Assembly (NCBI GenBank): GCA_964397565.1
Contig: CAYNJC010000017.1
Coordinates: forward strand, 15,753 to 79,752
Length of the DNA stretch: 64,000 nt
Direction: 5' to 3'
From: an uncultured bacterium
GTDB taxonomy: Bacteria; Auribacterota; UBA3054; JAPLST01
The notes under the pieces are model-generated. The model searched no databases, was not told the origin of the DNA, and was given only the letters and a program-made list of their open reading frames with translations. Position numbers and translations under genes: made by a program. Below, in pieces: positions 13,441 through 57,386 of the stretch (the first letter of the stretch is position 1; the number at the start of each line of letters is the position of its first letter).

Positions 13441-14904
13441 ATGGCGCAGTATGAAGCAGTGATTGGCCTCGAGGTGCACGTGCAGCTGAACACGGCGACC
13501 AAGCTGTTCTGCCGCTGCCGCAACCACTTTGGCGACCCGCCCAACACCAACGTCTGCCCGGTCTGCCTCGGCCTGCCGGGCGCGCTGCCAGTCGTCAATC
13601 AACAGGCGGTCGCGCATGCCGTCCAGACGGGTCTGCTGCTGAACTGCACCATCGCCGCGTTCTCGAAATTCGACCGCAAACATTATTTCTATCCCGATCT
13701 GCCCAAGGCCTATCAGATTTCACAATATGATCTGCCGGTCTGCCGCGCCGGCTGGCTGGAAATCCTGCTGGCCGGGCAATCGCTGCGGATCGGCATCACC
13801 CGCGTGCACATGGAAGAGGACGCCGGCAAACTCATTCATGACGAAGGCGCCGGCACCAGCTTGGTGGACTTGAACCGCACCGGCACACCGCTGCTTGAAA
13901 TCGTCAGTGAACCGGAGCTGCATTCGCCCGACGCCGCGTATGCCTATCTGGCCACGCTCAAACAACTGATCTCTTATCTGGGCGTCAGCGACTGCAACAT
14001 GGAAGAGGGTAGCTTGCGCTGTGACGCCAATGTCAGTGTGCGCCCGGTCGGCGTCACCACCCTTGGCACCAAAGTTGAAATCAAGAACCTGAACTCGTTC
14101 AAGGGCGTGCACAAAGCGCTGACCTATGAGATCGAGCGCCAAACCAAGGCCATCGCCGCCGGCCAGCCCATCGTGCAGGAAACACGCCTGTTCGATGCCG
14201 CGCAGGACAAGACGTTCTCCATGCGCAGCAAGGAAGAAGCCCACGATTATCGCTATTTTCCCGATCCCGACCTGGCGCCGATGACCTTCAGCGCGGCGCA
14301 AATTGAGGCCGCGCGCGCATCCTTGCCGGAACTGCCGCATGTCCGCAAGGAACGCTTCATCACCCAGTTCGCGCTGTCCGACTATGATGCCACGCTCCTC
14401 ACCAGCGCGCGCGCCATGGCCGAGTATTTCGAGGCCACCGTGCAGGCCGGCGCATCCGGCAAAGCCGCCGCCAACTGGATCGCCAACAATCTGCTGACCG
14501 CGCTCAATGCCGCGCACCTCACCCTGGGGCAGTGCCGCATTACGCCGGCCCAGCTCGCGGACATGATCGCCCTGGTCGGCAGCAACGCGATCAGCAGCAC
14601 CAATGCCAAGAATGACGTCTTTCCGGCCATGTTCGCCAGCGGCGCGGCACCGCAGACAATCGTCGACGAGAAGGGCTTGCGGCAAGTGTCGGACAGCACC
14701 CAGATTGATGCGTGGGTGCGCGCCGCGCTTGCAGAAAACCCGGAGGTCGTGGCCGCCCTCAAGACCGGCAAAGCTAAGGCGGCCGGCAAACTAGTCGCGG
14801 CGGTCATGCGCCTCAGCCAGGGCAAAGCCAATCCGGCCCTGGTCAACCAGCGCATTGCCGCACTCACGCGTGCCTATCCGCCGCCGGCACAGGAACCGAC
14901 ATGA
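13441..14904 (+). CDS. gatB: Asp/Glu-tRNA amidotransferase subunit B
   Basis: YEAVIGLEVHVQLNT.TKLFC...CPVCLGLPGALPV...RVHMEEDAGK...NLNSF: canonical GatB. Confidence 0.92.
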   Translation: MAQYEAVIGLEVHVQLNTATKLFCRCRNHFGDPPNTNVCPVCLGLPGALPVVNQQAVAHAVQTGLLLNCTIAAFSKFDRKHYFYPDLPKAYQISQYDLPVCRAGWLEILLAGQSLRIGITRVHMEEDAGKLIHDEGAGTSLVDLNRTGTPLLEIVSEPELHSPDAAYAYLATLKQLISYLGVSDCNMEEGSLRCDANVSVRPVGVTTLGTKVEIKNLNSFKGVHKALTYEIERQTKAIAAGQPIVQETRLFDAAQDKTFSMRSKEEAHDYRYFPDPDLAPMTFSAAQIEAARASLPELPHVRKERFITQFALSDYDATLLTSARAMAEYFEATVQAGASGKAAANWIANNLLTALNAAHLTLGQCRITPAQLADMIALVGSNAISSTNAKNDVFPAMFASGAAPQTIVDEKGLRQVSDSTQIDAWVRAALAENPEVVAALKTGKAKAAGKLVAAVMRLSQGKANPALVNQRIAALTRAYPPPAQEPT

Positions 14905-38450: not shown

Positions 38451-38928
38451 GCAAAACTCCTGGTAAGATTACTCTATCTATTGAACACAATTTCGCCATA
38501 ATTCGCAACCGCACACAAACAAGGGCGGTGTGGGTGGGTGTCGCTGACGCTGCGATAGCAGTCGCGCCAACGGCGCGGATGGATGGCGGAACCAGCCGGC
38601 TCGTCCCGCAGACCGCGCAGATGCTCGGTGCTGCCGCCGGGCTGCTGCTGCAAGTTCGTCATGCATCATTTCTTGCTGCTTGGAGTGCCGCTAAAAGCGG
38701 TATTCGCTATTCGTCATTCATCCCCCCCGCCCCGACAGGGCGGGAATGCAGGGAATGCGCCGTTACCCAGGGCGTTGCCCTGGGCTGGTATGCCCTGCCC
38801 CCTTGGGGCACCACTGCACTCCGCAATCACCCAGCCACATCGCACCCAAAATACCACTCACTATCGATATCTATCGGCCTTGCAGCACCTGCATTTCACG
38901 AATCGCCGGATCTGGGGGTGCATTTTCA

Positions 38929-38958
38929 TTGACGTCCACAGGTGCTTTTTGCTATACT
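38929..38958 (+). promoter_or_regulatory. Putative promoter TTGACG-18-TGcTATACT upstream of the C25 peptidase gene
   Basis: TTGACG at 38929-38934, TATACT at 38953-38958 preceded by TG. The ~100-nt leader contains a hairpin (39001-39012 pairs with 39026-39036). Confidence 0.45.
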
Positions 38959-39059
38959 TATATAATTGTTTGCATGGTTTTTCATGTGCTCTTTCACGAT
39001 GCAGTCGCATCGCCAGTTTGCCGCGCGATGGACTGCGATAGTACAACAACCGGACTACT

Positions 39060-41777
39060 ATGAAGTTGATTGCATGGGCGCTGGTCGGCCTGGGATTGAG
39101 CGTGAGTGCGCCGGCGGCCACACTGACACACACCTTCTCATTCGCGCGTGCGGCCCTCAGTCTGACCCCGCAGGCCGACGGCACCGCCGTGATTCTGGCC
39201 GCAGAAGCACGGCCGTGCGACACGCCTGGCGCGCCATGGTTGCCAGCGGCGTATCGCACGCTGTTGCTGCCGGCCGGCGCGCGCGTGACCGCCGTGCATT
39301 GCGTCAGTGATGAAGCGCTGCTACAGACCGGCATCACGGTCGCACCCGCCCAGCCGCCGCAGCGCCGCAATGCGCCCAAGGCCGCCGTGACACCGGCACG
39401 CGCCGAGGCCTATGCGCGCGATACGCTGATGCCGCAACAGCAGGCGCAGTATCTTGAGACACAAACCATGCGCGGCTATACGCTGGTGGCGTTGCGCCTG
39501 AATCCGGTGCGCTACAACGCGGCGCAACGCGTGTTACATTTCGCGTCCGAGCTACGGGTGACGATCGAGTATGAGGTGACCACGCCAGCCGCGATGTCGG
39601 CGCGCAATCTGGAGGTCTTCGGCGCCATGGCGCGCGGCATGGCGGCCAATCCGCAGTTGGCCGAGGCACGTCCCCAGACGATGCGCCTAGCTCCGCGCAA
39701 TGCCGTGGATTATCTGATCATTACCTCACAGGCGCTTTCGAATGCCTTTGCCGCCCTGGCTGCGCAGCGCGCCGGGCGCGGCCTGTCTACCGCAATCATG
39801 ACTGTCGAGGCCATCACCGCCGCCTATCCTGGTATGGATACCCAGCAGAAAATCCGCAACTGCATCACCAATTTTGTCTATGGCAAGGGCACCCTCTTTG
39901 TCGTGCTCGGCGGCGATGACACCGTCGTGCCGGATCGCGACTGTTATGTCACCGGTCCTGAACTTGAATCTCAAATGCCGACCGATTTATACTATTCCGG
40001 TTTGGACGGCACCTGGAACGCCGACGGTGATAGCAACTACGGCGAGACCAACGACGGCGTGGACATGGCTCCGGATGTGCTTGTCGGGCGGATACCCGTG
40101 CGCACCGCGCAGCAGGCCACGGATTACATTAACAAAGTGATTGCATTTGAGAACAATCGCCCGACCGCACTGCTCGACAAAATGTTGCTGATCGGCACGG
40201 AGACGTGGGATACCTACACCGGCACCGGTCGGCCGACCGATCTGCTGAACGACGGCCACGCTGAATTTCGCGCGGCCAACCACCCCAGTGTCAGCGATGC
40301 GGAGATCTGGGCGCGGCGCCTGTATCGCGACGGTATCACCCAGTACTGGCGCGCGGCCACGCTGTCGTGCTTTTTCGACACGCTGACCTCGTGGGACACG
40401 ACCACCGCCGGGGATTACGCGCAGACGGCCGCGAATGTGCAATCAAAAATGAATCTGGGCTGGGGCCAGGTCTTTTTCTCCGACCACGGCTATGAATCCG
40501 GCTGGGGCCTCGAAAGCGGCGATTACACGACCACGGAAGCCAGCACGCTCAACAATCGTGTCGTGCTGGTCTACACCGATGCCTGCCTGACCGGCCACTT
40601 TGATGGCAGCCCCGAGCCATGTTTCAGCGAGGGTTTCTTGCGCAACGCCAACAACGGCACGCTGAGCTATATTGGCTGCAGCCGCTATGGTTGGGGCGAG
40701 CCCGGCAGTTGGGATGGCGGGGCATCCACGGTCTATGCCTACAAATTCTATCAGCGCCTGTTGCAGCCGCGCAGCGTTACCATCGGCCAAGCGTTTGCAC
40801 AGCACAAAGCCGACATGGCGCCGCAATGCACCGTTGAAGGCGCCGAGCGCTGGATTCAATTCGGCCTCAATTTGCAGGGTGATCCGGCGATCCAGTGGGG
40901 CCTTGTTGAAAGCAACAAGCCGCCGGTCTTGGCGCATATCGGCAACAAGGCTGTGTTGGCCGGCTCACTGCTCCAATTTCCCGTCAGCGCCCAAGACACT
41001 GTTGATGGCGACACCATCACGCTACAGGCCGCACCCCTGCCGGCCTGGGCTGCCTTTGCCGTGGTCAGTAACAAAGGCACCGTCAGCAGTGAGTTCAGCG
41101 GTGTGCCACCACAGCCCGGCATGTATGATCTGGTCTTCATCGCCCAGGATAAGGACGGCGCAACCAGCGAGACCGTGCGGGTTGTGGCCGGTGCAACGGG
41201 GTTGGCGTCTGCGCTCTTGATTTCTCAATATGGCGAAGGCAGCAGCGGCAACAAATTCATCGAGCTCTACAACGGCACCAGCAATGCCATTGACCTCAGC
41301 GGCTATGTTGTGAAGCAGCAGATGAACGGTGCCGGTGCGTTCGCCAATGATTTGACCTTGAGCGGGGTTTTGACCGCCAGCCACACCTATGTGATTGTCT
41401 GCAATCAGGCCAGCGACAGCTTGCGCGCCAAGGGCGACTTGGTCACCGGCAGCTTGTGTCTGCAATTCACCGGCAACGACGCCATCGGCGTGTTCACCAC
41501 CGGCGCCACGTTGCTTGACGTGGTCGGCGAGCAGAACAGCAGCGCCAACTGGGGGCGCGACCTGACACTGTGCCGCCGGCCGGAAGTGCACCAGCCCGCG
41601 CCGGTATATGCCGCCGTAGAATGGGACGTTTTGCCCAGCGATGATTGGGATGATGTCGGCCAGCACATGCTTGTTCCGGAGCCAGGTCTGCTTGTGGGCG
41701 GCCTGCTGGGCGGCTGGCTGTGGTTGCGCCGGCGCGGGCCTTCTGCCGGTGGCCAGCGGTGTTTTGTGCAGCACTGA
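39060..41777 (+). CDS. Peptidase C25 (gingipain) family protein with lamin-tail-like domain and PEP-CTERM anchor
   Basis: Signal peptide. DYLIITSQAL...TLFVVLGGDDTVVP...DLYYSGLDGTWNADGD. Catalytic contexts FFSDHGYESGWG (His) and LVYTDACLTGHF (Cys). LISQYGEGSSGNKFIELYNGTSNAIDLSGYVV (LTD-like). C-terminus VPEPGLLVGGLLGGWLWLRRRG. Confidence 0.75.
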   Translation: MKLIAWALVGLGLSVSAPAATLTHTFSFARAALSLTPQADGTAVILAAEARPCDTPGAPWLPAAYRTLLLPAGARVTAVHCVSDEALLQTGITVAPAQPPQRRNAPKAAVTPARAEAYARDTLMPQQQAQYLETQTMRGYTLVALRLNPVRYNAAQRVLHFASELRVTIEYEVTTPAAMSARNLEVFGAMARGMAANPQLAEARPQTMRLAPRNAVDYLIITSQALSNAFAALAAQRAGRGLSTAIMTVEAITAAYPGMDTQQKIRNCITNFVYGKGTLFVVLGGDDTVVPDRDCYVTGPELESQMPTDLYYSGLDGTWNADGDSNYGETNDGVDMAPDVLVGRIPVRTAQQATDYINKVIAFENNRPTALLDKMLLIGTETWDTYTGTGRPTDLLNDGHAEFRAANHPSVSDAEIWARRLYRDGITQYWRAATLSCFFDTLTSWDTTTAGDYAQTAANVQSKMNLGWGQVFFSDHGYESGWGLESGDYTTTEASTLNNRVVLVYTDACLTGHFDGSPEPCFSEGFLRNANNGTLSYIGCSRYGWGEPGSWDGGASTVYAYKFYQRLLQPRSVTIGQAFAQHKADMAPQCTVEGAERWIQFGLNLQGDPAIQWGLVESNKPPVLAHIGNKAVLAGSLLQFPVSAQDTVDGDTITLQAAPLPAWAAFAVVSNKGTVSSEFSGVPPQPGMYDLVFIAQDKDGATSETVRVVAGATGLASALLISQYGEGSSGNKFIELYNGTSNAIDLSGYVVKQQMNGAGAFANDLTLSGVLTASHTYVIVCNQASDSLRAKGDLVTGSLCLQFTGNDAIGVFTTGATLLDVVGEQNSSANWGRDLTLCRRPEVHQPAPVYAAVEWDVLPSDDWDDVGQHMLVPEPGLLVGGLLGGWLWLRRRGPSAGGQRCFVQH

Positions 41778-41814
41778 TGCAGCAACAACCAACTCCGTGA
41801 TTCTGCCCTTATCC

Positions 41815-41843
41815 TTGCTTTTTTTATGTGATTTTCGTACAGT
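41815..41843 (+). promoter_or_regulatory. Putative promoter TTGCTT-17-TACAGT of giant paralogue 1
   Basis: Same -35 hexamer and spacing as the promoter-like site at 46204-46232 upstream of paralogue 2. Confidence 0.35.
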
Positions 41844-41941
41844 AGACCGATGTACCGTTCGTGTTTGGCACGTGTTCGGCGGTCATAGTTCGGTAACTTC
41901 TGGGTTGATGGATCGTTAACCATTTGATGTGGAGCCGCAAC

Positions 41942-44900
41942 ATGAAGTGCGGTCTTTTTATTTTCGTTGTGCTTAGCACTTTCTGCGTCAGTTGTGCAGC
42001 TAGTGCGGTCGTCATTTGCGGCGAAGGCTTCAACCAGGCCACGCTTCCCGCGGGCTGGTCGCTTTCAAATGCGACGCAGTATTCATCGGCGGTCACGGCC
42101 AATGCAAAAACGTCTCCGCCGAGCATTGACCGCTTTCCTTATCTGCAAGATTTCAATGATACAAGCGCATGGCCACCGACAAGCGCACAGCCACCAAGCG
42201 GGTGGAGCATCATTGACAACCTGAACATGAATAGACCGTGGACTCTGAACACAAGGTGGGAAGCCCCGAATTATGCCGGTGGCAACGGTGCCTGCGCTCT
42301 TGCTTCCTCGGTGTCGATTGCCAACGCCATGGACACCGAATTGCGCGTCACGTTTGATTTTTCGGGTTTGACCAAACCGTTACTAAAATTCATCACCGCC
42401 TACGCTGATCACAGCATTAACGACAGCGCCCGCACCCAAGTCAGCACCAATGGCGGCACAACGTGGGTACCATTGGCCAACTGGACCACCGATATCAGCC
42501 CGGATGGTCCAGGCAGCAACATTGTCTTCGATTTGCAGGCGTGTGCCGGCCAGCCCAATGTCATCCTGCGCTTCTGGTATGTAAGCGACTATGATTATTT
42601 TTGGGAAGTGGACAATGTCTATGTTTTCGACAATGTGCCGAATGTATTTTTCCAGCCCGACAAACAGAGCGGCATTGGTTGTATTGGCGTGACAGTTCCC
42701 TATCGTCTGTCCGTCGAAAATTCAACGGGCAGCGACCGTGGTTTCAACTTTCAGTATGACAGTAGCTGGCCGGTCAACGGCCCGAGCTCGTCCGGCGTGC
42801 TGGGCAACGGCGTTATCACCAACATCACTGTCGGCGTGACGGTGCCACTCACCGCGTATCAAGGGCAAGCCTGCACCACCACCGTGCGCGCCATTTCAAC
42901 GGATGGCAACTATACTAATATCGCCCAACTGATTACTGCGTGCACGTGGGTGAACAATATTCTCTACGAGCCCTTCAACAACGGACTGAACGGCTGGACG
43001 AATTATTATGGCGGACCACAGGTGGGGGGCTGGTATCTTTTATACTCCGGCGGCATCGCGCACGGCAAGTTCGATGGCGTAACCAACTGGCTGGTCTCAC
43101 CTGCCATTAATCTTACCGCGCTTGGTCTGGATACCCTTGACGTACAGTTCTGGTTTGGCTGCTATGTTAACATGATCAATGTCGAAAGTGTCTATCTCTC
43201 GACCGGCAGCCGGAATCCGGCCGACGGTGACTTTGTCAAGCTGGCGGACATCGAATCCAAGCCGGGCTACGCGTATTTGAACTATGCCAATCTTTTGGCA
43301 TATGCCGGCAGCAATCCGGTCTATTTTGGCATTGCATATCTCAGCTCGAATGATTGGCAAGCGATTCGCGACTTCCGGATTACTGGCGCGAAAATCGGCA
43401 TTAATAATGCCATGCTGTTGGGCCCGCCAACGCTGCCAACCATGACTAGTTACGGCAGCACGCCAGCTGTCACGGGCGGCATATATTACGCCGACGAAAC
43501 GGGGACCAATGGCCCGGCCCCATTCACGATCGCCCAGCTTGGTTTTGGCCCGACCGGCACCATGGATTTGGCCCTGTGGACTTGGTTTGACGCAGCCTAT
43601 AGCGGTCACGACGACATGTATGACTTGTTTACCTGTGCACCGCAATTGACCATCGCCGGTCCGCTTAACTATTGCTATCGCTTCCGGCGCGGCAGCGCCG
43701 CATGGGTGTATGCCGACTTGGACGGCAGCACCAACGGTTTCGCCTTTGACAAGGTCGGTGTGATCACGGTCAATATGTTGCCGCCACGGGGCGCACTGCT
43801 GCGCAATCAGACCATTAGTGCCGATTGGGCCTTTGCGCCTAGCTCCTTTGCGAATCCGAGCAATGTGCCGCCGATCTATTGGGAAACTGCCGATGATATC
43901 AGTTTGCCCTACGATGCCCACATCAAGTCTGTGTGCATGGCCGGTGTCTACTGGAATGCGGGCCGGCAGGGACTGGAAGATGGTTTTTGGCTGCGCATTT
44001 ACAACAACGCCGTGACCAATCCGGGCACGCTGCTCTATCAACAATATGTGCCCGGCTATGCCTGTGAGCAACTGATCGGTGTGGACGCCTATGGTTACCA
44101 TGACTACAAATATCAGGTGGATCTCAATGCACCATTCCTAGCCAAAATTGGCAACACTTATTGGGTCTCGCTGCAACAGGAAACGCGCAACGGCACCTTC
44201 TGGTCGCTGCTCGACTCGCCCGATGCGATACGCGGTCTCGATGCTTGCTATCGTGGCACAAACGCTTGGTTGCGGGTGACGAAGCGTGATGGTAGTGGCG
44301 TGGATCTCGGCATGGAAGTCTACGGTGACGCAACCAATGCGGGTTTTGTCGTCGGCACGGTACGCACTACGGATACGCTGCTACCGATCGCCAATGCACA
44401 GGTGATGATTACCAATGATAGTTATATGTACAGCGTAGCAACTATTACCGACGGTACGTATGTTATCCAAGCGCCGGCTGACACGTATGACGTCACCGTC
44501 ACCAAGGGGAATTATCTGCCAGCAACGGCTGCGGGTGTGGTCGTCACCGCCGACCAGACCAACACACAGGACTTCTTACTTAAGGGTTCGCAGTTGTTCG
44601 TCAGCCCGACCAATATTACGCGCATGAGGATGGCCGGGCAGATGATAATGACCAATCAACTGGTGCTGACCAACAGCGGCCCGCTTACGGTGAATGTTAG
44701 TTTGGCGCTGGCGCAGTGGGGCTACACAAATGCCGTACTGACCACCTCTTTTGCTTGTGCACCGCGTTGCCCGATCCGGATCGGCGCGCCGTCACCGCAC
44801 ACGACGGCGGTGCCGGCGGTGCCAAGCAAGACCTGCTATGGTATCAACAATTACCAGACATCCAGCACGGTCAAACAGTTGTGGCAATTCACCACCACAA

Positions 44901-46078
44901 CGCCCAGCACACCCGTGGTAACAACAATAAATCCAAGTGGTTGGATCTGGGGCGGCGATTTCATTGGTGACGACTATTCGACGTTTTATGCCCTGACGGA
45001 CGACAATACGCTGATCACAATCAACGTAGTGAACGGTGCCACTGCCGTCGTCGGCGCGGCGACGCCGTCGGCTGGTGCACAATGGTCGGGGATGGCCGCC
45101 GCCGGTGACGGCACGGTCTATGCCAGCGCGAACACGTATCCCGGTGCCGAACTGTATGCCATCAATCCCGCAACCGGCACTGCCACTTTGATTGGCACCA
45201 TCACCAGCGCAAACAACATTGGCGGTTTGGCCATCAGCCCCGATGGTGTTCTGTATGGTGTAGATGTGGCAGCTAATACCCTTGTGCAGATCAACAAAAC
45301 CAGCGGAGCTGGCACGGTCATCGGCGCGCTCGGGATGGATGCGGTGTACGACTCGGCCATGGATTATGATGACGACGACAACATTCTCTATTTGGCCACA
45401 TGCGATGCCAACACTGCCAATCAAGATTGCGTCCTCGTCACGGTCAACCCGACGACGGGTGCCACCAATGGCTATCTCGGCCTGCTGGGCAATGGCTTGA
45501 CGGACATCACCGCGTTGGGTATTGTTTCTCGTGCGCCGCGCTGGGCGCGGATGACGACCAATGCGCTCTCGATTGCGGCGGGCGGGGTCGGGACCGTTGA
45601 CGTCATCTTCGATGTCTCGATCGTCTCGAATTCGGGAACGTACACGGCTGAAGTGGATATCAGTGGCACGCATGTCAATCCACTGGCGCCGGTGCCGCTC
45701 AAGCTGATCTTGGGCACCGACCCGGTCATCAGCGCGCCTACATCGCTCGACTTTGGCGATGTGCAGCTTGGCCAAACCAACAGCGCCAAGCTGATTGTCG
45801 GCAATATTGGTGCTGGCATGTTGACTGGTGAAATCTTTGGCGTGACTGCGCCGTTTGGCATCATCGGTACTGCCAACTACCACATCCCGGCTGGCGTTAC
45901 GGCAACGCAGACGTTGTTTTTCACGCCGCCAATGGAACTGGCCTATACCAATACGGCCGTGTTGACCGGCGGTGGCGGGGCAACCGTCACCCTGGTTGGC
46001 GGCGGCATCCCCGAACCCGTGTTCGCGCTTTGTCTGTTCGGTTTGGCGCTGTTGACGCGGCGCAGGTACTCCGCCTGA
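41942..46078 (+). CDS. Large secreted PEP-CTERM surface protein, paralogue 1 (jelly-roll 'choice-of-anchor J'-like modules, CarboxypepD_reg-like domain, beta-propeller-like region, Ig-like 'choice-of-anchor D'-like domain)
   Basis: Signal peptide MKCGLFIFVVLSTFCVSCAASA. EGFNQATLPAGWSLSN. GTVRTTDTLLPIANAQVMITN...DGTYVIQAPADTYDVTVTKGNYL. LDFGDVQLGQTNSAKLIVGNIG. C-terminus GIPEPVFALCLFGLALLTRRR. Confidence 0.7.
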   Translation: MKCGLFIFVVLSTFCVSCAASAVVICGEGFNQATLPAGWSLSNATQYSSAVTANAKTSPPSIDRFPYLQDFNDTSAWPPTSAQPPSGWSIIDNLNMNRPWTLNTRWEAPNYAGGNGACALASSVSIANAMDTELRVTFDFSGLTKPLLKFITAYADHSINDSARTQVSTNGGTTWVPLANWTTDISPDGPGSNIVFDLQACAGQPNVILRFWYVSDYDYFWEVDNVYVFDNVPNVFFQPDKQSGIGCIGVTVPYRLSVENSTGSDRGFNFQYDSSWPVNGPSSSGVLGNGVITNITVGVTVPLTAYQGQACTTTVRAISTDGNYTNIAQLITACTWVNNILYEPFNNGLNGWTNYYGGPQVGGWYLLYSGGIAHGKFDGVTNWLVSPAINLTALGLDTLDVQFWFGCYVNMINVESVYLSTGSRNPADGDFVKLADIESKPGYAYLNYANLLAYAGSNPVYFGIAYLSSNDWQAIRDFRITGAKIGINNAMLLGPPTLPTMTSYGSTPAVTGGIYYADETGTNGPAPFTIAQLGFGPTGTMDLALWTWFDAAYSGHDDMYDLFTCAPQLTIAGPLNYCYRFRRGSAAWVYADLDGSTNGFAFDKVGVITVNMLPPRGALLRNQTISADWAFAPSSFANPSNVPPIYWETADDISLPYDAHIKSVCMAGVYWNAGRQGLEDGFWLRIYNNAVTNPGTLLYQQYVPGYACEQLIGVDAYGYHDYKYQVDLNAPFLAKIGNTYWVSLQQETRNGTFWSLLDSPDAIRGLDACYRGTNAWLRVTKRDGSGVDLGMEVYGDATNAGFVVGTVRTTDTLLPIANAQVMITNDSYMYSVATITDGTYVIQAPADTYDVTVTKGNYLPATAAGVVVTADQTNTQDFLLKGSQLFVSPTNITRMRMAGQMIMTNQLVLTNSGPLTVNVSLALAQWGYTNAVLTTSFACAPRCPIRIGAPSPHTTAVPAVPSKTCYGINNYQTSSTVKQLWQFTTTTPSTPVVTTINPSGWIWGGDFIGDDYSTFYALTDDNTLITINVVNGATAVVGAATPSAGAQWSGMAAAGDGTVYASANTYPGAELYAINPATGTATLIGTITSANNIGGLAISPDGVLYGVDVAANTLVQINKTSGAGTVIGALGMDAVYDSAMDYDDDDNILYLATCDANTANQDCVLVTVNPTTGATNGYLGLLGNGLTDITALGIVSRAPRWARMTTNALSIAAGGVGTVDVIFDVSIVSNSGTYTAEVDISGTHVNPLAPVPLKLILGTDPVISAPTSLDFGDVQLGQTNSAKLIVGNIGAGMLTGEIFGVTAPFGIIGTANYHIPAGVTATQTLFFTPPMELAYTNTAVLTGGGGATVTLVGGGIPEPVFALCLFGLALLTRRRYSA

Positions 46079-46203
46079 TCTGTCTTCTCGGCGCGGCGAT
46101 GTTGGTGAGGGACCTCACGCTCACCGGCGTCGCCGCAAGCCAACTTGCGGATGCACGCGCACGTCTGCTGGGCGCGCGGTGCTGGATTTGGGATTGTTCT
46201 TCT

Positions 46204-46232
46204 TTGCTTTTTTCCCCGACATTTGCTATACT
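46204..46232 (+). promoter_or_regulatory. Putative promoter TTGCTT-17-TATACT of giant paralogue 2
   Basis: TTGCTT at 46204-46209, TATACT at 46227-46232 with TG upstream. Followed by a ~98-nt leader whose last 63 nt are conserved with paralogue 1. Confidence 0.4.
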
Positions 46233-46329
46233 ACCGCATTCATGATGTCCCGCTGGCAAGTATGCAGCGGTCATAGTCCGGTAACTTTTCGGTTGATGGA
46301 TCGATAACCATTTGATTGGAGTCACCACG

Positions 46330-49300
46330 ATGAAACGCAGCTTTTTCACTCTCATTGTTCTTGGTCTTCTCTGTGTCAGTCGTGCAGCCAGCGCAGCCGT
46401 CATCCTCAGTGAAGGCTTCAACCAGGCCACGCTTCCCGCGGGCTGGTCGCTTTCAAATGCGACGCCGGTCACCTTCGTGACCAGCAGCACGTATCCAACA
46501 GCCGTGCCTTACGAAGGCACGCACTTTGTGAGGTTTAACTCGTTCAGTGTGTCGTCCGGCGTCCGCTCGCAGCTTGCCTCACCCAGCATGTCAACGGTTG
46601 GCAAGTCTGACATCAACGTCGTCTTTGCCTGGTATCGCGACACCGGTTATGCCAGCAACTGGGACCGCGTCTATGTACAGTACTCGATCGACGGCACGAC
46701 CTGGGCCGATGTCGCCATGTATCCGCGCACCAACACCGTCAACGGTTGGACCCTGCAAACCTGCCCGCTGCCGGCCGACGCGACCAATCAGCCGAATCTG
46801 CGCATTGCGTTTCTGTTTTGGTCGGCGTATGGCAACAACTGTTATCTTGACGCGGTCCAGGTTAAAGGCACGGCGCCCGGCGAAGTGGACCCGCCCGTCA
46901 ATTTCTCCGCCAGCGCAGCCAGCAAGACGCAGATCAACCTGGCATGGCAAGCCAATGCCGCCGGTGACGATGTCATAGTCGCCTCGAACGGCGTGGCCAC
47001 GTTTGGTGTGCCGGCCAACGGCACGAGCTATGCCGTCGGCACCGCGCTGCCGGGCGGTGGTGTCATCATATACAAAGGCAACGGCCTGGTGTACCCCTGC
47101 GACAACTTGACGATGGACACGCGCTATTATTATTCTGCCTGGTCGGTCAATGCGGTGACGACGTATTCGCCGGCCGTCACGGCCAACGCGCAAACGTTCG
47201 CGCCGGCCATTGACAGCTTTCCCTATCTGCAGGACTTTAACGGCGCCTGGCCACCCAGCGGATGGAGCGTCATTGACAACCTGAGCGCCGGTGGCACATG
47301 GGATTTGAACACGACCTGGAGTCGCCCGAACTATGCTGGCGGCAACGGCACCTGCGCGGATGCCGACTCGGATGCGTTTGGCGATGCCATGGACACCGAA
47401 TTGCGCGCCACCTTTGATTTTTCGGGCTTGACCAAGCCCGTCTTGAAATTCATCACGTCCTACAACGATTATAGCAGCTACGACAGCGCCCGCACCCAAG
47501 TCAGCACGAATGGCGGCACAACCTGGGTCACCCTGGCCAATTGGACGGTCGACATAGATCCGAATGGTCCGGGCAGCAACATCGTCTTCAACCTCGAGGG
47601 CTTCGCCGGCCAGCCCAATGTCATGTTGCGTTTCTGGTATGTGAGCGATTGGGATTGGTGGTGGGAAGTGGACAATGTGTATGTCTACGACAAGCTGCCG
47701 AACGTATACTTGGAGCCGACCAAGCAGAGCGGCGTGGGCTATCTTGGCGCCGCAGTCCCCTATCGCCTCTCGGCCGAGAACGCGACCGGCGGCGGCCGCG
47801 ATTTCAATTTCCAGTATGACAGCATCTGGCCGGTCAACGGCCCGAGCTCATCCGGCATCCTCGGTGATGGCGTGACCACCAACATCGTGGTCAGCGTGAC
47901 CGTGCCACTCACCGCGTATCAAGGCCAGGCCTGCACCACCACTGTACGTGCCGTCTCAAGCGATGGCACCTTCACCAACACGGCCCAGTTGATCACGTCG
48001 TGCACGTGGGAGAAAGACTTTTTCTACGAGGCCTTCACCACGTGGCCAAACGGCTGGACCAATTACTATGGCGGACCGCAGGTGGGCGGCTGGTATCGTG
48101 ATGCATACTACGGCGCCGCCGCGCACGGCAAGTTCGCGGGCGCAACCAACTGGCTGGTCTCACCCGCCATTGATTTGACCGGGCCTGGTCTGGATTCCCT
48201 CGAGTTGGCGTTTTTGTTTGGTTGCACCGCCGACCTGGTCAATGTCGAAGGCATCTACCTCTCGACCGGCAGTCGGAATCCGGCCGATGGCGCCTTTGTC
48301 AAGCTGGCGGACATCGAATCCGAAGCGCTCTACTGGTTCTGGAATTACGCCAATCTTCTGGCCTATGTCGGCAGCAACCCGGTCTATTTGGGCATTGCGT
48401 ATCTCGGCCCGAATGATTGGCAATTGGTCGACGAATTTCAGATTGCTGGCGCAAAAGTCGGCATTGACAATGCCATGCTGGCCGGCCCGCCGACGCTGCC
48501 GACCATCACCAGCTACGACAGCACGCTGGCCGTCACCGGCGGCATGTCCTATGCCGGCGAGACGGGCGCGAGCGGTCCTGCGCCATTCACCACGGCCGAA
48601 CTCGGCTTCGGCCCGACCGGCACGGTGCCCAACAGCGCGACGTGGACCTGGTTCCCCGCCGCGTATCTTGGCGCCGGCGGTGACTATGATCTGTACACCG
48701 CCGCACCGCAAGTGACCATCGCCGGCCCGCTCAATTATTGCTATCGCTTCCGGCGCGGCACAGCGGCTTGGGTCTATGGCGACTTGGATGGCAGCACCAA
48801 CGGCTTCAACCTTGACAAGGCCGGGGTGATCACGGTCAACATGTTGCCACCGCAAGGTGCGCTGCTGCGCAATCAGACCATTGGTCTCGATTGGGTAATT
48901 GGTCCCAGCTCATTTGTGGATCCGAGCAATGCGCCGCCCATCTACTGGGAAACCGCCGATGACCTTAACTTGCCCTACGATGCCCACATCAAGTCTGTGC
49001 GCATGGGTGGCATCTACTGGAATGCAGGCCGGCAAGGTCTGGAAGACGGCTTCTGGCTGCGCATTTACAACAACACCGTGACCAATCCGGGCAGCATGCT
49101 CTATCAGCAATATGTGCCCGGCTACGCCTGCGAGCAATTCCTCGGCGTGGACGGTAGTGGCCTCAATGACTACAAATATCAGGTGAATCTCAGTGCGCCA
49201 TTCCTCGCCGTCGCCGGCAACACCTACTGGATTTCGCTCCAGCAGGAAACGCGCAACGGCACCTACTGGTCGCTGCTCGACTCGTCCGATGCGGTCCGCG

Positions 49301-51183
49301 GCCTCGATGCCTGCCAGACAGATGCAAGCATGGTGTGGTCGCCGGTGGGCGGCGGCGGCGTTGATCTCGGCATGGAAGTCTACGGTGATGTGACCAATGC
49401 GGGCTTTGTCGCCGGTATGGTCCGCAACGCGGACACCCTGCTGCCGATCACCGACGCGCAGGTCATGATCACCAATGCCAGCTACATTAACAGCCGGCTG
49501 ACGATGGCCAACGGCACGTATGTCACGCCGGCCCCGGCTGGCACATACGACATCACCGTAACCAAGGCAGGCTATCTGCCGGCAACGGCTGCGGGTGTTA
49601 TCGTCGCCGTCGGCCAGACCAACACGCAGGACTTCCTACTCGAGGGTTCGCAGTTGTTTGTCAGCCCCACCAATGTTACCCGCATGATGGCGGCCGGGCA
49701 AATGGTGACGAATCAATTAGTGCTGACCAACAGCGGGCCACTGGCGGTGGACACAAGTCTGGCGCTGGCGAATTGGGGCTACACGAATGTCGTGCTGGCT
49801 CTTAAGGCCGCGAGCGCACTTGCTCCGGCCGCGCGTTTCCCGATCCGGATCGGCGCACCGTCACCGCGGATCAAGACCGGCAACTACGCCACCCGCGCCA
49901 CAACCGCAGCGGCGGCACCCACGGCGGTGCTCGGCAAGACCTGCTATGGCGTGAATATCTTCCAAACGTCCGGCGCGGTTACCCAGTTGTGGCAGTTCAC
50001 CACCACAACGCCCAGCACGCCCACGGTGACGCCGATCGGCCCGAGCAGCATGATCTGGGGCGGCGATTTCATTGGCGGCGACTATTCGCAGTTCTACGCT
50101 CTAACCACAGGCAACAGCTTGATTGCCATCAATGTTGTCAACGGGGCCGTCACCACGGTCGGCACGGCCACCCCGTCCGCCGGCGCGCAATGGTCCGGGA
50201 TGGCTGCTGCCAATGGCGGCACGGTCTATGCCAGCGCCAATACGGCCACCGGTGCCGAACTGTATACCATCAATCCTGCCACCGGCGCAGCCACGTTGAT
50301 TGGCACCATCACCGGTGCAAGCAACATCGGCGGCTTGGCGATCAGCCCCGGCGGCGCGTTGTATGGCGTGGATCTGACGGCAGATGTGCTGGTCAGCATC
50401 AACAAAACCAGCGGTGCCGGTACGGTCATCGGCGCGCTGGGCATGGATACGATCTACGATTCGGCCATGGATTACGATGACGAGCATGACATCCTCTATC
50501 TGGCCACCTGCGATGCCGACACGGCCAATGAAGATTGCGTACTGGTCACGGTCAACCCGGCGACGGGCGCCACGAATGGCTATCTCGGCCTGTTGGGCAA
50601 TGGCTTGACGCAGGTCACCGCGTTGGGCATTGTCGGTGCAAGTGCACCGCGCTGGGCGCGGCTGGGCACCAATGCGCTCTCGATTGCGGCCGGCGCGGTT
50701 GCCAACCTTGACGTCATTTTTGATGCCACCGTGGTCTCGAATCCGGGCACCTACACGGCCGAACTGGAGCTCAGCGGCACGCATGTCAATCCGCTGGCGC
50801 CGGTGCCGCTCAAGATGATCTTGGGCGTCGGTCCGATCATTAGCGCGCCGGCCTTGCTCGACTTCGGCGACGTCATTGTCGGCGAGACCGGCGGCGTGGA
50901 TCTGGTCGTCGGCAACATCGGCGTCGGCGTCCTGACGGGTGAGACCACGGGTGTGACTGCGCCGTTCGGCGTCTTGGGCGCGGCCGGCTACGGTATTCCG
51001 GCCGGCGCCAGCGTGACCCAGAATCTGGTCTTCACGCCGCCGCTGGAACTGGCCTACACCAACACGGCCGTGTTGACCGGCGGTGGCGGCGCAACCGTCA
51101 TCCTAGTCGGCGTCGGCATACCCGAGCCCGCGTTTGCATTTGGTCTGCTCGGTGTGGCGCTGCTGACGCGGCGGCGCACATGA
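46330..51183 (+). CDS. Large secreted PEP-CTERM surface protein, paralogue 2 (extra N-terminal jelly-roll + FN3-like module)
   Basis: Collinear with 41942-46078 and near-identical in many blocks. Extra ~240 aa after SLSNAT, including FN3-like PPVNFSASAASKTQINLAWQANAAGDDVIV. C-terminus GIPEPAFAFGLLGVALLTRRR. Confidence 0.7.
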   Translation: MKRSFFTLIVLGLLCVSRAASAAVILSEGFNQATLPAGWSLSNATPVTFVTSSTYPTAVPYEGTHFVRFNSFSVSSGVRSQLASPSMSTVGKSDINVVFAWYRDTGYASNWDRVYVQYSIDGTTWADVAMYPRTNTVNGWTLQTCPLPADATNQPNLRIAFLFWSAYGNNCYLDAVQVKGTAPGEVDPPVNFSASAASKTQINLAWQANAAGDDVIVASNGVATFGVPANGTSYAVGTALPGGGVIIYKGNGLVYPCDNLTMDTRYYYSAWSVNAVTTYSPAVTANAQTFAPAIDSFPYLQDFNGAWPPSGWSVIDNLSAGGTWDLNTTWSRPNYAGGNGTCADADSDAFGDAMDTELRATFDFSGLTKPVLKFITSYNDYSSYDSARTQVSTNGGTTWVTLANWTVDIDPNGPGSNIVFNLEGFAGQPNVMLRFWYVSDWDWWWEVDNVYVYDKLPNVYLEPTKQSGVGYLGAAVPYRLSAENATGGGRDFNFQYDSIWPVNGPSSSGILGDGVTTNIVVSVTVPLTAYQGQACTTTVRAVSSDGTFTNTAQLITSCTWEKDFFYEAFTTWPNGWTNYYGGPQVGGWYRDAYYGAAAHGKFAGATNWLVSPAIDLTGPGLDSLELAFLFGCTADLVNVEGIYLSTGSRNPADGAFVKLADIESEALYWFWNYANLLAYVGSNPVYLGIAYLGPNDWQLVDEFQIAGAKVGIDNAMLAGPPTLPTITSYDSTLAVTGGMSYAGETGASGPAPFTTAELGFGPTGTVPNSATWTWFPAAYLGAGGDYDLYTAAPQVTIAGPLNYCYRFRRGTAAWVYGDLDGSTNGFNLDKAGVITVNMLPPQGALLRNQTIGLDWVIGPSSFVDPSNAPPIYWETADDLNLPYDAHIKSVRMGGIYWNAGRQGLEDGFWLRIYNNTVTNPGSMLYQQYVPGYACEQFLGVDGSGLNDYKYQVNLSAPFLAVAGNTYWISLQQETRNGTYWSLLDSSDAVRGLDACQTDASMVWSPVGGGGVDLGMEVYGDVTNAGFVAGMVRNADTLLPITDAQVMITNASYINSRLTMANGTYVTPAPAGTYDITVTKAGYLPATAAGVIVAVGQTNTQDFLLEGSQLFVSPTNVTRMMAAGQMVTNQLVLTNSGPLAVDTSLALANWGYTNVVLALKAASALAPAARFPIRIGAPSPRIKTGNYATRATTAAAAPTAVLGKTCYGVNIFQTSGAVTQLWQFTTTTPSTPTVTPIGPSSMIWGGDFIGGDYSQFYALTTGNSLIAINVVNGAVTTVGTATPSAGAQWSGMAAANGGTVYASANTATGAELYTINPATGAATLIGTITGASNIGGLAISPGGALYGVDLTADVLVSINKTSGAGTVIGALGMDTIYDSAMDYDDEHDILYLATCDADTANEDCVLVTVNPATGATNGYLGLLGNGLTQVTALGIVGASAPRWARLGTNALSIAAGAVANLDVIFDATVVSNPGTYTAELELSGTHVNPLAPVPLKMILGVGPIISAPALLDFGDVIVGETGGVDLVVGNIGVGVLTGETTGVTAPFGVLGAAGYGIPAGASVTQNLVFTPPLELAYTNTAVLTGGGGATVILVGVGIPEPAFAFGLLGVALLTRRRT

Positions 51184-51198
51184 TCCAGGCCGTCTGAC

Positions 51199-52503
51199 AT
51201 GTCCGACTGGTTCGACATGTCCGACCTGCTGGTTGTCTTCTGCGCGGCGGCGCTCGTGGGAACTGCATCTCCCACCGGCGTCGCCGCGCCTGTTTTCACC
51301 AGCGGCTGGCAACGCTTAAATGCCTTGTTCGGCGCGGCCCTTTTTCAAGACACCAATCTCTGGAATGATGCCGATGCTGCCGTGGCCACGCGCCTTGGTC
51401 TGCCGCTCGAGTCACGCACGTCGCAGCAAGCCAGCTTTCGCGCCTATCCCGACGCACATGCCCGCCTGCTGGGCGCGCGCCCCTACTCCTGTGCCCTCTA
51501 TAGCGAAAGCGGCCAGGTGGCGTATCTCTCGATCATGTTTGCCAACAAAGGCGATGTCGAGGGCTTGTCGGTGGGCGGAGACCGCGATGCCTCGCGCGCC
51601 GATGCGCACCTGCGCAAGAAAGCATTGCAGACCTATCAGGACAAAATCCGCGCCGATGCCAAAACCATTGAAGCCACCTTGACCACAAGCTTGGGCACGC
51701 CGACGCAAGTGACGTTCGGTGAGGGCTCGCGCGACACGACCGAACGCGCGTGGCGCTGGAACGCCGGTGCTCACAGCATTCTCTTGTCTTCGCCAAAGGA
51801 CGAATATGTCGCCGTGCGCATTGTCCCGCGCGCCTTGGCCGATGCCGAAGGCCGCGCCCAACGTATTGATGACGCCACGCTGCGCGCCAGCTTGGCCACC
51901 CGCGTGCAGCAGCGCAAGAACGGCGATGTGATTGTCGGCGATATCCCCATGGTGGACCAGGGGCCGAAGGGCTTCTGCGTGCCGGCCACATGGGAGCGCT
52001 ACCTGCGCTACCTCGGCATTCCGGCCGACATGTACGTGCTCGCCATGGCCGGCGGCACCAGCGCCGGCGGCGGCACCTATCTCGCCGCCATGGAAGACAA
52101 TGTCAAGAAACTCGTGCTGCGCCATGGCCGGCGCATCGTGACCATACGCAAGGTGCCGAAAACGCGCTTCATTCAAGAATATATTGACAAAGGCATTCCG
52201 CTGATGTGGACGCTGGTCGTGCCGCGCGACTTTTACATGAGTTTGTCCGCACGCGCCCAAGAACGTCGCAGTGTCACCGATTGGAATGCCTGGAAAAAAC
52301 GGCTGCAGGCCCAGCGCGTCAGCGCCGATTCACTGCGCAAGCAGGCCGACGGCGGGCATATCTGCCTGATCATCGGCTACAACAAAATCACCGGTGAAAT
52401 TGCCACGTCCGACTCGTGGGGCAAGGGCTTCGAGGAACGCTGGATGACCGAGGCCGAAGCCGAAGCCATCGGCGCCCAGTATCTGACCGCCATCACGTGG
52501 TAA
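51199..52503 (+). CDS. Secreted protein with C-terminal papain-fold, peptidase C39-like domain
   Basis: N-terminal hydrophobic signal-like segment. VDQGPKGFCVPATWERYLRYLGI (Q-x5-C context), GGHICLIIGYN (His), SDSWG (Asp), giving Cys-His-Asp order as in C39-like peptidases. Confidence 0.5.
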   Translation: MSDWFDMSDLLVVFCAAALVGTASPTGVAAPVFTSGWQRLNALFGAALFQDTNLWNDADAAVATRLGLPLESRTSQQASFRAYPDAHARLLGARPYSCALYSESGQVAYLSIMFANKGDVEGLSVGGDRDASRADAHLRKKALQTYQDKIRADAKTIEATLTTSLGTPTQVTFGEGSRDTTERAWRWNAGAHSILLSSPKDEYVAVRIVPRALADAEGRAQRIDDATLRASLATRVQQRKNGDVIVGDIPMVDQGPKGFCVPATWERYLRYLGIPADMYVLAMAGGTSAGGGTYLAAMEDNVKKLVLRHGRRIVTIRKVPKTRFIQEYIDKGIPLMWTLVVPRDFYMSLSARAQERRSVTDWNAWKKRLQAQRVSADSLRKQADGGHICLIIGYNKITGEIATSDSWGKGFEERWMTEAEAEAIGAQYLTAITW

Positions 52504-54683: not shown

Positions 54684-57386
54684 ATGCCTTCATTGCGTTC
54701 TGCCAGATCAACCATCACGCTCCTGCTCGTATCCCTGCTGACGGCCGGGTACTGCCTGGCTGCAGACTATTATGTCGCCAGCAACGGCAGCGACAGCAAT
54801 GACGGTCTGACACCCACCGGCGCATGGCGCTCGATCAATTACGCCATCGCCGCCAGCGGCACCGGCACGCCCGGCGCACCACTGGTGATTAATGTCGGCC
54901 CCGGCGTCTTTGTTGAGTATTACAGTTTCAACGCCGCCGTGCACATCCCGCCCGGCAAGGGCCATGTGCAGCTGCGTGGCGCCGGTATCGATGCCACGGT
55001 GATTATGAGCGATGCAACGAAACTGTGGCGCATGGGCTACTCGGCCGTCATTCGCAGTTACAGCAACACCGTGACCATCAGCGATTGCACCGTGCGGCAC
55101 GGCTTGCCGCAGGGCTATCACTGGGGCTCCGTGTTGATGATTCGCTATGCCGCCGCCGCGCTGGTCAGCAACGTTTGGCTTGATGCGCGCGAGACAACCC
55201 GCGCGCTGCTGTTTCTCGACCTCCTCGCCAACGCGCGGGTGACTACCATCAACACGCTGATTACCGATGGCCTCGGCTGTAATATTTGCCACAACGGCGC
55301 CAGTACCTCGGCGGGGCTCGTCACCAACTGCACGATCATCGGCGGCTACGGTGGTGTCCAGGCCGATGCCGGCGTGTGCCAGGTCAGCCGCAGCATCATT
55401 GCCCAGGTCAAGGGCAGCGCATTCTATGGCACCGGCACCGTGCAAGGCCGGCAGTGCTGGCTGCGCGCCAATCATCGCACGGCGGAAGGCAGCGGGAGCG
55501 CATCCCTGTGTATCACCGGCGCGGTCATGCCTTTTGTCGGGCCCATCAGCGGGCAAGTAACGTCGCTGTCGTACCAGCTGCTGCCGGACACTGACGCCAG
55601 CGGCTATGGCTTTGCGCCCACGCCCCTGCCTGCCGCGTTTTTCCCGGCGCAACCGGTCAACACGGCACCCAGCAATGATGCCACCGTCAGCGCCACGCCC
55701 ACGTTGTCCGGCAGTCCATTCATGTCGCCGCTTGCTGCCGCGCATAGCGGCACCGAATGGCTGCTGCAGATCAGCAATCGCGGCGACTGGATCACCTTTG
55801 CGAGCGTCACCACGGCCGCACCGCTGACCACTCTGACGTATGCGCCGCCGCTGCGCGCACTCTATCCCGGCCAGCGCTTTTACTGGCGCATGCGCTACAG
55901 TGATGACCGCGGCGTCTGGAGCCCGTATTCCGCACCGACTGCCTTCATCGTCGCCGACACCAATCTGCCAACCTGGACCGTGCCGGTCAACGGCATGATC
56001 ATCACGACCAACGTCACGCTCAAGCCGGGCTTCTATGCCCTGCCCGGCGGCCTGGTGCTGGCCGCGCATAACATCGCCCTTAATGGCAACGGCGCGATGC
56101 TCTGCGGTTCTGTCACCACCGGGTTCGGCATTCGCGCCACAGGCTATTCGGGCCTGACGGTGTCCAACATTACGTTGATGAACTACTGGTATGGCATGGT
56201 GCTGCGCAACGGCGACAACTGGCTGCTGCGCGAAGTACATGCCAGCAACAATCGCGTGTACGCCGGCTCGATGCTGTTTCTCAACGTGTGGGTCTGGAAA
56301 ACGTTGACCGATGAGAATCTGTGTGGCGGCATCTATCTCGAGACCACCCGCGACACGCGCGTCGAACGCTGCAGCGCCACCAATCAACAGAACGGCATCA
56401 GCGTGGTCGGCGGCACCCGCTGCCTGCTGCTCAGCAATGACTGCAGCGCCAACGTCGGCTGGGGCATTCATCTGGCGTCCACCGACTACTCGCGCGTGGT
56501 CTACAACCGCGCTGTTCGTGGCAATCGTGGCAACAACGGCGGGACCGGCGCGGATGCCACCTGCTTCCTCAGCATCCACCAATCCACGCATAATGAGGTC
56601 AGCTCAAATTCGTTCACCGATGGCGGCGACGGCGTCTTCGAATGCTGCCTCGTGCAAGGCAGCACCAAAAAATCCGGCTGGAATTATTACGCCGCCAATG
56701 ATTGCCGCCGCGCCACCCACAACCCGATCGAGTCCACCTTCGCCTTCAGCAATGTCTATGTTGACAACATCTGCGACGACGGCAGCCACGGCTTCTGGCT
56801 CGGCTACACCCACTGCTCCGTCATCTCGAATAACGCGATCCGCGGCAATTACGGCTGGGATCATCCCTCCGGCATTGTCATCGAACATGGGCGCAACAAC
56901 CTCATCTGCAACAATGACATCGTCAGCAACTACGCCGCCGGCATTCGCCTGTGGACGGATTACGACAGTGGTCTCAGTTATCTGTACCCCGATTTGCGCG
57001 ACTCGAAACAGTATACCATTTGCGGCAATCGTTTCCTCGACAACGGCTATGCCCTCTATTGGGAAGACACCACCAACACGCTGGTCTACAATAACCTCAT
57101 GCTGACCCAGCGGACGGCCTATGTCTACAGCTATCGCTCGACCGGCTCATGGAACATCGCCAAGACCGCCGGCCCGAACGTTCATGGCGGCCCCTTTCTG
57201 GGCGGCAATTACTGGCAGGCCTACACCGGCCAGGATCTCACTGGCGACGGCCTCGGCGACACGCTTCTGCCGTTTACCGATTTCGGCGCGCTCCTGCCCG
57301 GCGATTTTCTGCCACTGACCGACGTGGTGCCGGAACCGGGCCTGCTGGCGGCACTGCTGCTGCTGTGGTGCGCGCGCCGGCGCTGA
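54684..57386 (+). CDS. Secreted right-handed parallel beta-helix repeat protein with PEP-CTERM anchor
   Basis: Signal peptide MPSLRSARSTITLLLVSLLTAGYCLA. Repeated N-x-I/V-x-G-N beta-helix rungs (ISNNAIRGNYGW.., ICNNDIVSNYAAGIRLW). C-terminus VVPEPGLLAALLLLWCARRR. Confidence 0.7.
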   Translation: MPSLRSARSTITLLLVSLLTAGYCLAADYYVASNGSDSNDGLTPTGAWRSINYAIAASGTGTPGAPLVINVGPGVFVEYYSFNAAVHIPPGKGHVQLRGAGIDATVIMSDATKLWRMGYSAVIRSYSNTVTISDCTVRHGLPQGYHWGSVLMIRYAAAALVSNVWLDARETTRALLFLDLLANARVTTINTLITDGLGCNICHNGASTSAGLVTNCTIIGGYGGVQADAGVCQVSRSIIAQVKGSAFYGTGTVQGRQCWLRANHRTAEGSGSASLCITGAVMPFVGPISGQVTSLSYQLLPDTDASGYGFAPTPLPAAFFPAQPVNTAPSNDATVSATPTLSGSPFMSPLAAAHSGTEWLLQISNRGDWITFASVTTAAPLTTLTYAPPLRALYPGQRFYWRMRYSDDRGVWSPYSAPTAFIVADTNLPTWTVPVNGMIITTNVTLKPGFYALPGGLVLAAHNIALNGNGAMLCGSVTTGFGIRATGYSGLTVSNITLMNYWYGMVLRNGDNWLLREVHASNNRVYAGSMLFLNVWVWKTLTDENLCGGIYLETTRDTRVERCSATNQQNGISVVGGTRCLLLSNDCSANVGWGIHLASTDYSRVVYNRAVRGNRGNNGGTGADATCFLSIHQSTHNEVSSNSFTDGGDGVFECCLVQGSTKKSGWNYYAANDCRRATHNPIESTFAFSNVYVDNICDDGSHGFWLGYTHCSVISNNAIRGNYGWDHPSGIVIEHGRNNLICNNDIVSNYAAGIRLWTDYDSGLSYLYPDLRDSKQYTICGNRFLDNGYALYWEDTTNTLVYNNLMLTQRTAYVYSYRSTGSWNIAKTAGPNVHGGPFLGGNYWQAYTGQDLTGDGLGDTLLPFTDFGALLPGDFLPLTDVVPEPGLLAALLLLWCARRR

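Follow-up and report, generated by a model that had tools for sequence, protein, structure and literature searches.

We analysed a 64,000-nucleotide (nt) stretch of DNA from an uncultured lake bacterium (contig CAYNJC010000017.1, positions 15,753 to 79,752; the window) and concentrated on four long open reading frames (ORFs), g1 to g4, at 38929-52503 on the + strand. These are probably four independently promoted genes for exported proteins, ordinary exosortase cargo plus a general peptidase, and not a dedicated machine. ORF calling confirmed all four as the consecutive same-strand surface-protein genes of a preliminary description. g1 (39060-41777) encodes a C25 (gingipain-family) peptidase precursor of 905 amino acids (aa); g2 (41942-46078 from its probable ATG, ORF opening at 41924) and g3 (46330-51183 from its probable ATG, ORF opening at 46312) encode the shorter and longer tandem paralogues of a giant PEP-CTERM-type surface protein; g4 (51199-52503, probable start 51217) encodes an exported two-domain protein with a papain-fold C-terminal half. 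Signal peptides were assessed by eye only. In our reading g1, g2 and g3 would be cargo of the genome's single exosortase-EpsI, like more than 100 other proteins ending in [VI]PEP, a hydrophobic stretch and RRR, and g4 would be a general-purpose exported peptidase from a large papain-fold family. We draw on direct observations, namely the domain content, the catalytic residues, an exosortase located elsewhere in the genome, the pattern of transcripts, and the genomes in which the gene order occurs. The locus thereby documents how a member of a small candidate phylum dresses its surface, with one exosortase and a PEP-CTERM-type set that includes all four gingipain-like proteases.

The preliminary description had proposed a coordinated apparatus for adhesion and proteolysis. 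In this reading the genes form a functional module, in which one or both of the C25 enzyme and the papain-fold peptidase would act on the giant at the cell surface, maturing, shedding or remodelling it. We compared the locus of this genome (G000) with those of a sister species of the same genus (G001) and of further relatives (loci numbered with an L). The trio of C25, giant and C39-like (g4) genes recurs in the same order and on the same strand in L065 and L143, with identities of 71-75% for g4, 63% for the giant and 82% for the C25 peptidase, and all products are exported; both observations favour a module. L065, from an NCBI metagenome-assembled genome (MAG), carries OYE (- strand), C25 (82%), giant (63%) and g4 (74%) genes, then V-ATPase, and L143 a C-terminal fragment of the C25 gene, the giant and g4 in order; each holds a single giant. 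Our first conclusion, that the juxtaposition of C25 gene and giant was unique to this genome, was overturned by these two loci. Elsewhere the arrangement is broken. In G001, 41 kb separates the C25 orthologue (86% identity) from the giant and g4, and the orthologue stands on the opposite strand among different neighbours, so that the adjacency was lost in a sister species with no gene lost. In L002 a single giant is preceded by hydrogenase-maturation genes, L142 has g4 alone, and L066-L068, whose giants are 47-52% identical, lack both peptidases near the giant. Co-conservation thus extends to G000, L065 and L143, fails in G001/L002 and L142, and is absent outside the clade.

A wider survey argues in the same direction. 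Among g4-bearing loci, examined as 61 and then 77 more, a giant stood alongside in close relatives only, the C25 gene lay beside a g4 homologue in the relatives' loci L065 and L143 only, and more than 100 loci lacked both. Clustering of neighbours at 48 g4 loci gave no conserved partner, with no neighbour family in more than 10 of the 48; those seen most often have the look of unrelated housekeeping genes. Scanning metagenomes yielded only g4 relatives that were either very close or distant, and the intermediates came from exact-protein look-ups. Since the g4 family usually occurs in genomes and loci without giants or C25 genes, the role of g4 must be general. The g4 tree, ((G000,(L002,G001)),(L065,L143)) with L142 outside, together with the distribution of the trio, indicates that the trio is ancestral to the clade and that the adjacency was lost once. 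Unrelated flanking genes (OYE and V-ATPase in L065) are syntenic over the same distance, and the conserved order of the trio therefore says little about function. The best explanation is a gene order inherited within one narrow clade, which is not evidence of an obligate functional unit. The preliminary description did not recognise the combination as one already described; the trio does recur in few genomes, but its parts belong to known kinds.

Transcription of the four genes was compared in four lake metatranscriptomes. g3 was covered end to end at a word depth of 6-12, with contig starts at 46251, 46279 and up to 46330, and g2 was essentially uncovered (depth ~0). Depth over g1 was 1-4, in contigs that begin at 39135/39197 and end at 41818-41844, before g2. 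Over g4 it was 0-1.5 past the junction with g3, the only junction crossed, by contigs reaching 51353. Thus, RNA contig coverage differs about tenfold between the genes, and in the four metatranscriptomes neither g1 and g2 nor g2 and g3 are joined by any contig; together these exclude a single operon. The preliminary description had named co-transcription beforehand as an expectation on which its proposal would stand or fall, and no single RNA unit spans g1-g4, which also counts against a module. Rubrerythrin, 3' of g4, showed high RNA. DNA carry-over was ruled out as the source of the RNA signal, as DNA depth was flat while RNA depth was uneven.

The DNA runs also bear on whether the juxtaposition of g1, g2 and g3 could be an assembly artefact arising from the repeated 5' regions of g2 and g3. 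Logan contigs do have breaks within the repeated stretch that encodes the signal peptides, at 42023-42077 and 46436-46440. However, DNA contigs from independent runs span every junction, g1 to g2 at 38772-42052 and 41426-42039, and g2 to g3 at 42048-46440 and 45804-46465; depth over g1-g4 is flat, and the same order, with a single giant, is found in L065 and L143. An artefact is therefore extremely improbable, and was rejected on the spanning contigs and flat depth.

The best promoter-like match in the region is a sigma-70-like site at 38929..38958 on the + strand (TTGACG-18-TATACT, with a TG extension), about 100 nt 5' of g1. The preliminary description had begun the locus at 38929; the locus itself stands, and that position is the -35 box of this site and not a codon. 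The leaders of g2 (41879-41941, + strand) and g3 (46267-46329) are near-identical over ~60 nt. Each holds a three-codon mini-ORF just 5' of the start codon, ATGGATCGTTAA at 41908 and ATGGATCGATAA at 46296. An extended -10 box, TGcTATACT, is intact in the g3 copy (46227..46232, + strand) and marks the probable g3 promoter, whereas the g2 copy is degraded (TACAGT), which would fit the silence of g2. g2 appears close to silent in situ.

Next, we examined the C-terminal tails. The claim of five PEP-CTERM proteins in the window held insofar as the motif (PEP, a hydrophobic stretch, RRR) is visible on five, namely g1-g3, the protein at 71-2761 on the - strand and that at 54684-57386; the cut-off of the TIGR02595 model was reached by none. 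The tails of g2, g3 and the 71-2761 protein gave weak matches to other C-terminal sorting models only and none to TIGR02595. Across the genome a regular expression for the motif, whose consensus is [VI]PEP[AG], found 112 ORFs, where shuffled tails gave 0.4. This count is a lower bound, as the expression missed the PEG variant of a C25 paralogue on contig C12; that paralogue (- strand ORF of 1562 aa, over 8237-9211) ends in VVPEGCLALLAGALALLARVRRQRA. Another tail-bearing gene lies within 6 kb of 47 of the 112. A 64-kb stretch with five tails is among the richer ones of the genome (mean 1.1 per 64-kb window; 3.4% of windows hold at least five), but two of the five belong to one tandem duplicate, the pair g2 and g3.

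The window holds no exosortase gene, as the preliminary description had noted, and the genome-wide search returned one. This sole gene, at 5875-8019 of contig C4, encodes 714 aa, with the exosortase domain at 6070-6798 (PF09721, 2.8e-34, 119 bits) fused to an EpsI domain (EpsI 43.7 vs 42.8 bits; exo_archaeo signature 53.9 vs 23 bits). Its place on another contig removes any puzzle of a missing exosortase. It reached the cut-off of no typed exosortase subfamily, and it adjoins a pyruvate:ferredoxin oxidoreductase gene and does not lie within an exopolysaccharide (EPS) or other polysaccharide locus. PEP-CTERM/exosortase protein sorting, reportedly set out by Haft and colleagues in 2006, shares with this genome the C-terminal PEP motif, transmembrane helix and basic cluster, and an exosortase, here single and with an EpsI domain. 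Unlike standard PEP-CTERM sequences, the tails score below the TIGR02595 cut-off, which suggests a lineage-specific [VI]PEP[AG] variant, and unlike those of typical systems the exosortase has no typed subfamily and stands outside an EPS gene cluster. We infer that g1-g3 are sorted by this exosortase.

Several points weigh against our reading of the locus as independent genes for cargo and a general peptidase. The closest TIGR02595 matches, 12.6 bits for the g1 tail and 14.1 bits for that of the 54684-57386 protein, both fall short of the 16-bit cut-off. The RNA data are near-identical assembled contigs and not raw reads, and zero depth in them does not prove absence. The trio is kept in three of the five sampled clade genomes. 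Between g3 and g4 lie just 15-33 nt in four of the five, against 226 nt in L065; given this short spacer and the transcript read-through across the junction, which both favour a module, some coupling of g3 and g4 is likely. Genes need not adjoin to work together, and unequal RNA does not exclude a relation of protease and substrate, since an enzyme needs less transcript than its substrate; the high substrate and low enzyme transcript seen here are compatible with a module. Set against the points above, and the observation that the other three C25 paralogues of the genome do not adjoin giants, we consider a functional module unlikely. What remains of the proposed apparatus is the recurrence of the trio in L065 and L143, within one narrow clade. 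If a module did exist, the exosortase pathway, which is poorly understood, would gain its first accessory proteases. By analogy with the action of PorU-type C25 enzymes on type IX cargo, the C25 and papain-fold peptidases might be a dedicated processing pair that trims, activates or releases the giant exosortase-sorted protein in this clade. We regard such a pair as distinctly doubtful; if real, it would give the PEP-CTERM pathway its first described module of protease and cargo.

The identity of g1 as a C25 peptidase with intact His and Cys contexts and a lamin-tail-like domain was borne out by both Pfam and an alignment to Kgp. The Peptidase_C25 match (7.3e-62; PF01364, 210 bits vs a cut-off of 23) covers profile positions 1-373 of 374. 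A signal peptide is followed by a prodomain at aa 49-193 (Propeptide_C25, 5.7e-8; PF08126, 32.6 bits vs a cut-off of 22), and the N-terminus aligns with the Kgp prodomain structure 5mun (1.1e-8, phmmer against the PDB). The catalytic domain occupies aa 218-612, where the same search aligns SDHGY (His476, nt 40485) and TDACLTG (Cys509, nt 40584) with the AHGSE and NCCITA motifs of Kgp/Lys-gingipain. Then follow a weakly matched He_PIG Ig-like domain (aa 621-705), a lamin-tail domain (LTD, aa 717-823, 5.7e-11) and, from aa 872, the PEP-CTERM-type tail. g1 is best explained as a surface-anchored gingipain-type protease made as a zymogen. All four C25 paralogues of the genome carry a PEP-CTERM-type tail.

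We compared g1 to the gingipains and to PorU. The gingipains Kgp and RgpB (Porphyromonas gingivalis, MEROPS C25) share the N-terminal prodomain, the caspase-like catalytic domain with its aligned His/Cys dyad, the Ig-like domains C-terminal to it, and surface anchoring via a cleavable C-terminal sorting signal. They differ in that the signal of g1 is a PEP-CTERM-type tail for exosortase and not a C-terminal domain of a type IX secretion system (T9SS), and g1 has a lamin-tail domain and lacks haemagglutinin/adhesin domains; in sequence it resembles Kgp only weakly (1e-8). PorU, which serves type IX secretion as a sortase of the C25 family, has the same catalytic fold, and g1, too, adjoins proteins needing C-terminal processing. 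In contrast to PorU, no T9SS context was seen for g1, and g1 itself bears a sorting tail and so looks like cargo. A PorU-type sortase was rejected on the NCBIfam PorU models (55.1 vs 420 bits and 47.6 vs 450 bits), and judging by the profile scores these matches reflect shared C25 ancestry only. A literature search on C25 peptidases with PEP-CTERM found nothing relevant.

The giants g2 and g3 are 72% identical over 1359 aa. The lengths first given for them, 1379 and 1618 aa, count the stop codon; from the inner ATGs at 41942 and 46330 they are 1378 and 1617 aa. g2 lacks roughly residues 45-275 of g3, which form the first jelly-roll and an FN3-like block. Both match CarboxypepD_reg (~1e-11; aa 1033-1110 in g3) and DUF4394 in Pfam, with weak MAM, reelin-subrepeat and choice-of-anchor-D matches in Pfam/NCBIfam; no NCBIfam family is assigned to g3, and g2 has sub-threshold NCBIfam matches only. 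g3 is made up of MAM/reelin-like jelly rolls, Ig-like domains, CarboxypepD_reg, a DUF4394/NHL-like propeller and a choice-of-anchor-D-like Ig domain, and ends in an IPEP...RRR tail. We used AlphaFold2 (AF2) to model residues 30-1229 of g2 from a 14-sequence alignment. The model is all beta, with a mean predicted local distance difference test (pLDDT) of 68 and domain cores of 70-90. Its Foldseek matches are MAM/Ig/FN3 ectodomains, reelin repeats, HYDIN-type Ig/ASH arrays and six-bladed NHL/PknD propellers, with no enzyme fold among them. Pfam and the model thus agree with the jelly-roll, CarboxypepD_reg, propeller and Ig-like domains described at the outset.

The giant family is rare, with 14 full-length homologues among 5.8 billion proteins, and among 41 relatives it is confined to the genome's own order. 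One homologue carries the NCBI name choice-of-anchor J. Giant surface proteins of the choice-of-anchor J/D and MAM-domain kinds resemble g2 and g3 in an N-terminal MAM-like jelly roll beginning "GFNQATLPAGWS", in their Ig-like modules and in interchangeable C-terminal anchors. They differ in that g2 and g3 belong to a rare family whose architecture adds CarboxypepD_reg and an NHL-like propeller. A literature search on choice-of-anchor proteins found nothing relevant. We infer that g3 is an abundant, fast-evolving, non-enzymatic surface protein of a binding or adhesin type. g2 is specific to this genome and is best explained as a tandem copy of g3 that has lost two N-terminal domains and has a weakened promoter. 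Fast evolution of the giant and tandem duplication, with one copy silent, is the pattern expected under diversifying pressure on a surface protein. Compared with L064, L065 and L002, the giant (window 41942-51183) evolves much faster than its neighbours, with identities between genomes of 63-71%, against 82-86% for C25, 74-88% for g4 and 87-88% for the NosD protein. Tandem giants are also present in other genomes of the order (G006:C113 and G008:C35).

The g4 protein has 434 aa and no PEP-CTERM tail. The papain-type order of Gln, Cys, His and Asp that had been noted in its C-terminal half is invariant in 37 homologues of 44-87% identity, as Q254 (nt 51958), C260 (nt 51976), H387 (nt 52357) and D405 (nt 52411), all on the + strand. 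The AF2 model (pLDDT 89) places C260 where helix 260-271 begins, H387 within strand 386-395 and D405 directly after strand 400-404. Thus, the modelled catalytic half has papain topology (clan CA) with the canonical order of residues. A search of the PDB by sequence with the family profile gave nothing useful, and only the fold comparison was informative. Among PDB structures Foldseek ranked PeiR first (2.9e-7), followed by prostaphopain B, the primitive phytochelatin synthase Alr0975, xylellain and AvrRpt2, with a probability of 1.0 to PeiR, staphopain and Alr0975. PeiR is a pseudomurein endoisopeptidase (C71). Matches to viral models at E <1e-3 include actinophage endolysins (Gordonia phage OneUp, mycobacteriophage Lysin A). 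PeiR and the cysteine-peptidase domains of actinophage lysin A are thus the best fold matches to the catalytic half, and share the Cys at a helix N-terminus with His and Asp on following strands; sequence identity is 15-17%, with TM-scores of about 0.5-0.58. Unlike these proteins, g4 has an extra conserved N-terminal domain of ~210 aa.

g4 could be a leader peptidase of the C39 type, clipping double-glycine leaders from secreted peptides in the manner of C39 domains that process bacteriocins. Its Peptidase_C39_2 match in Pfam (PF13529, 4.4e-4) points this way, as does the name "C39 family peptidase" that NCBI gives some homologues. Yet the match is weak, at 21.3 bits below the 24-bit threshold, and g4 appears exported, whereas in ABC exporters the C39 domain works at the cytoplasmic face; no ABC exporter, fused or adjacent, and no double-glycine substrate was present in the loci inspected, and the fold comparison put PeiR, staphopain, phytochelatin synthase and endolysins nearest to it, the matches listed including no C39 structure. 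A leader peptidase is therefore very unlikely. Most g4 homologues carry a precomputed PF13529 match, and no NCBIfam family is assigned to g4. Phage lysins have PF13529 among their listed catalytic domains (PMC8223927).

The family of g4 is a large, well-conserved and uncharacterised one of exported cysteine peptidases with a papain fold; its more than 1,470 homologues measure ~420 aa and come mostly from Verrucomicrobiota. In three distant relatives (46-56% identity) the orthologue heads a tight g4-mreC-mreD-PBP2 array with gaps of 1-3 nt (L004 10001-14573, L144 4695-9086 and a JGI 3300042731 contig); in this genome mreC-mreD-PBP2 lie on contig C29, without g4. We tentatively propose, from the fold relatives and the mreC context, that g4 may cleave cell-wall peptides alongside the MreC/MreD/PBP2 elongation machinery. 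This is the role that we favour for g4, yet we hold it only as a minority possibility because g4 adjoins mreC in just 3 of ~140 contexts, most Verrucomicrobiota loci lacking the link, and because in L145 g4 adjoins another large CarboxypepD_reg protein; these observations, too, sit uneasily with our reading. Even so, a cell-wall role is at least as likely as maturation of the giants, and the fold relatives and the occasional operon with mreC-mreD-PBP2 make it testable. Only 4 of 42 genomes (at least 90% complete) of the small phylum have g4, and it is widespread in Verrucomicrobiota, which suggests that the gene may have moved laterally between the two lineages.

The genes flanking g1-g4 on both sides are unrelated to them. 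An OYE flavoprotein gene and a URO-D/thioredoxin gene occupy the minus strand on their left; on their right come genes for rubrerythrin, a ferric-reductase-type flavocytochrome and a NosD/beta-helix PEP-CTERM protein, together with a V-type ATPase operon. Directly 5' of the g1 promoter, at 38675-38840, lies a palindrome-rich dispersed repeat of ~90-165 bp, at which the contigs of the DNA runs all break. It gave 17 nhmmer matches at ~14 distinct sites of the genome, in both orientations. Four of the 14 sites lie at most 300 bp 5' of a PEP-CTERM-type gene (g1, C2:109734, C3:153525 and C69:5921), more than the few per cent expected by chance. Finally, the closest matches of GatB (window 13441-14904) are from unclassified "bacterium" MAGs; next come Candidatus Aureabacteria, its nearest named relatives, at 56-59% identity.

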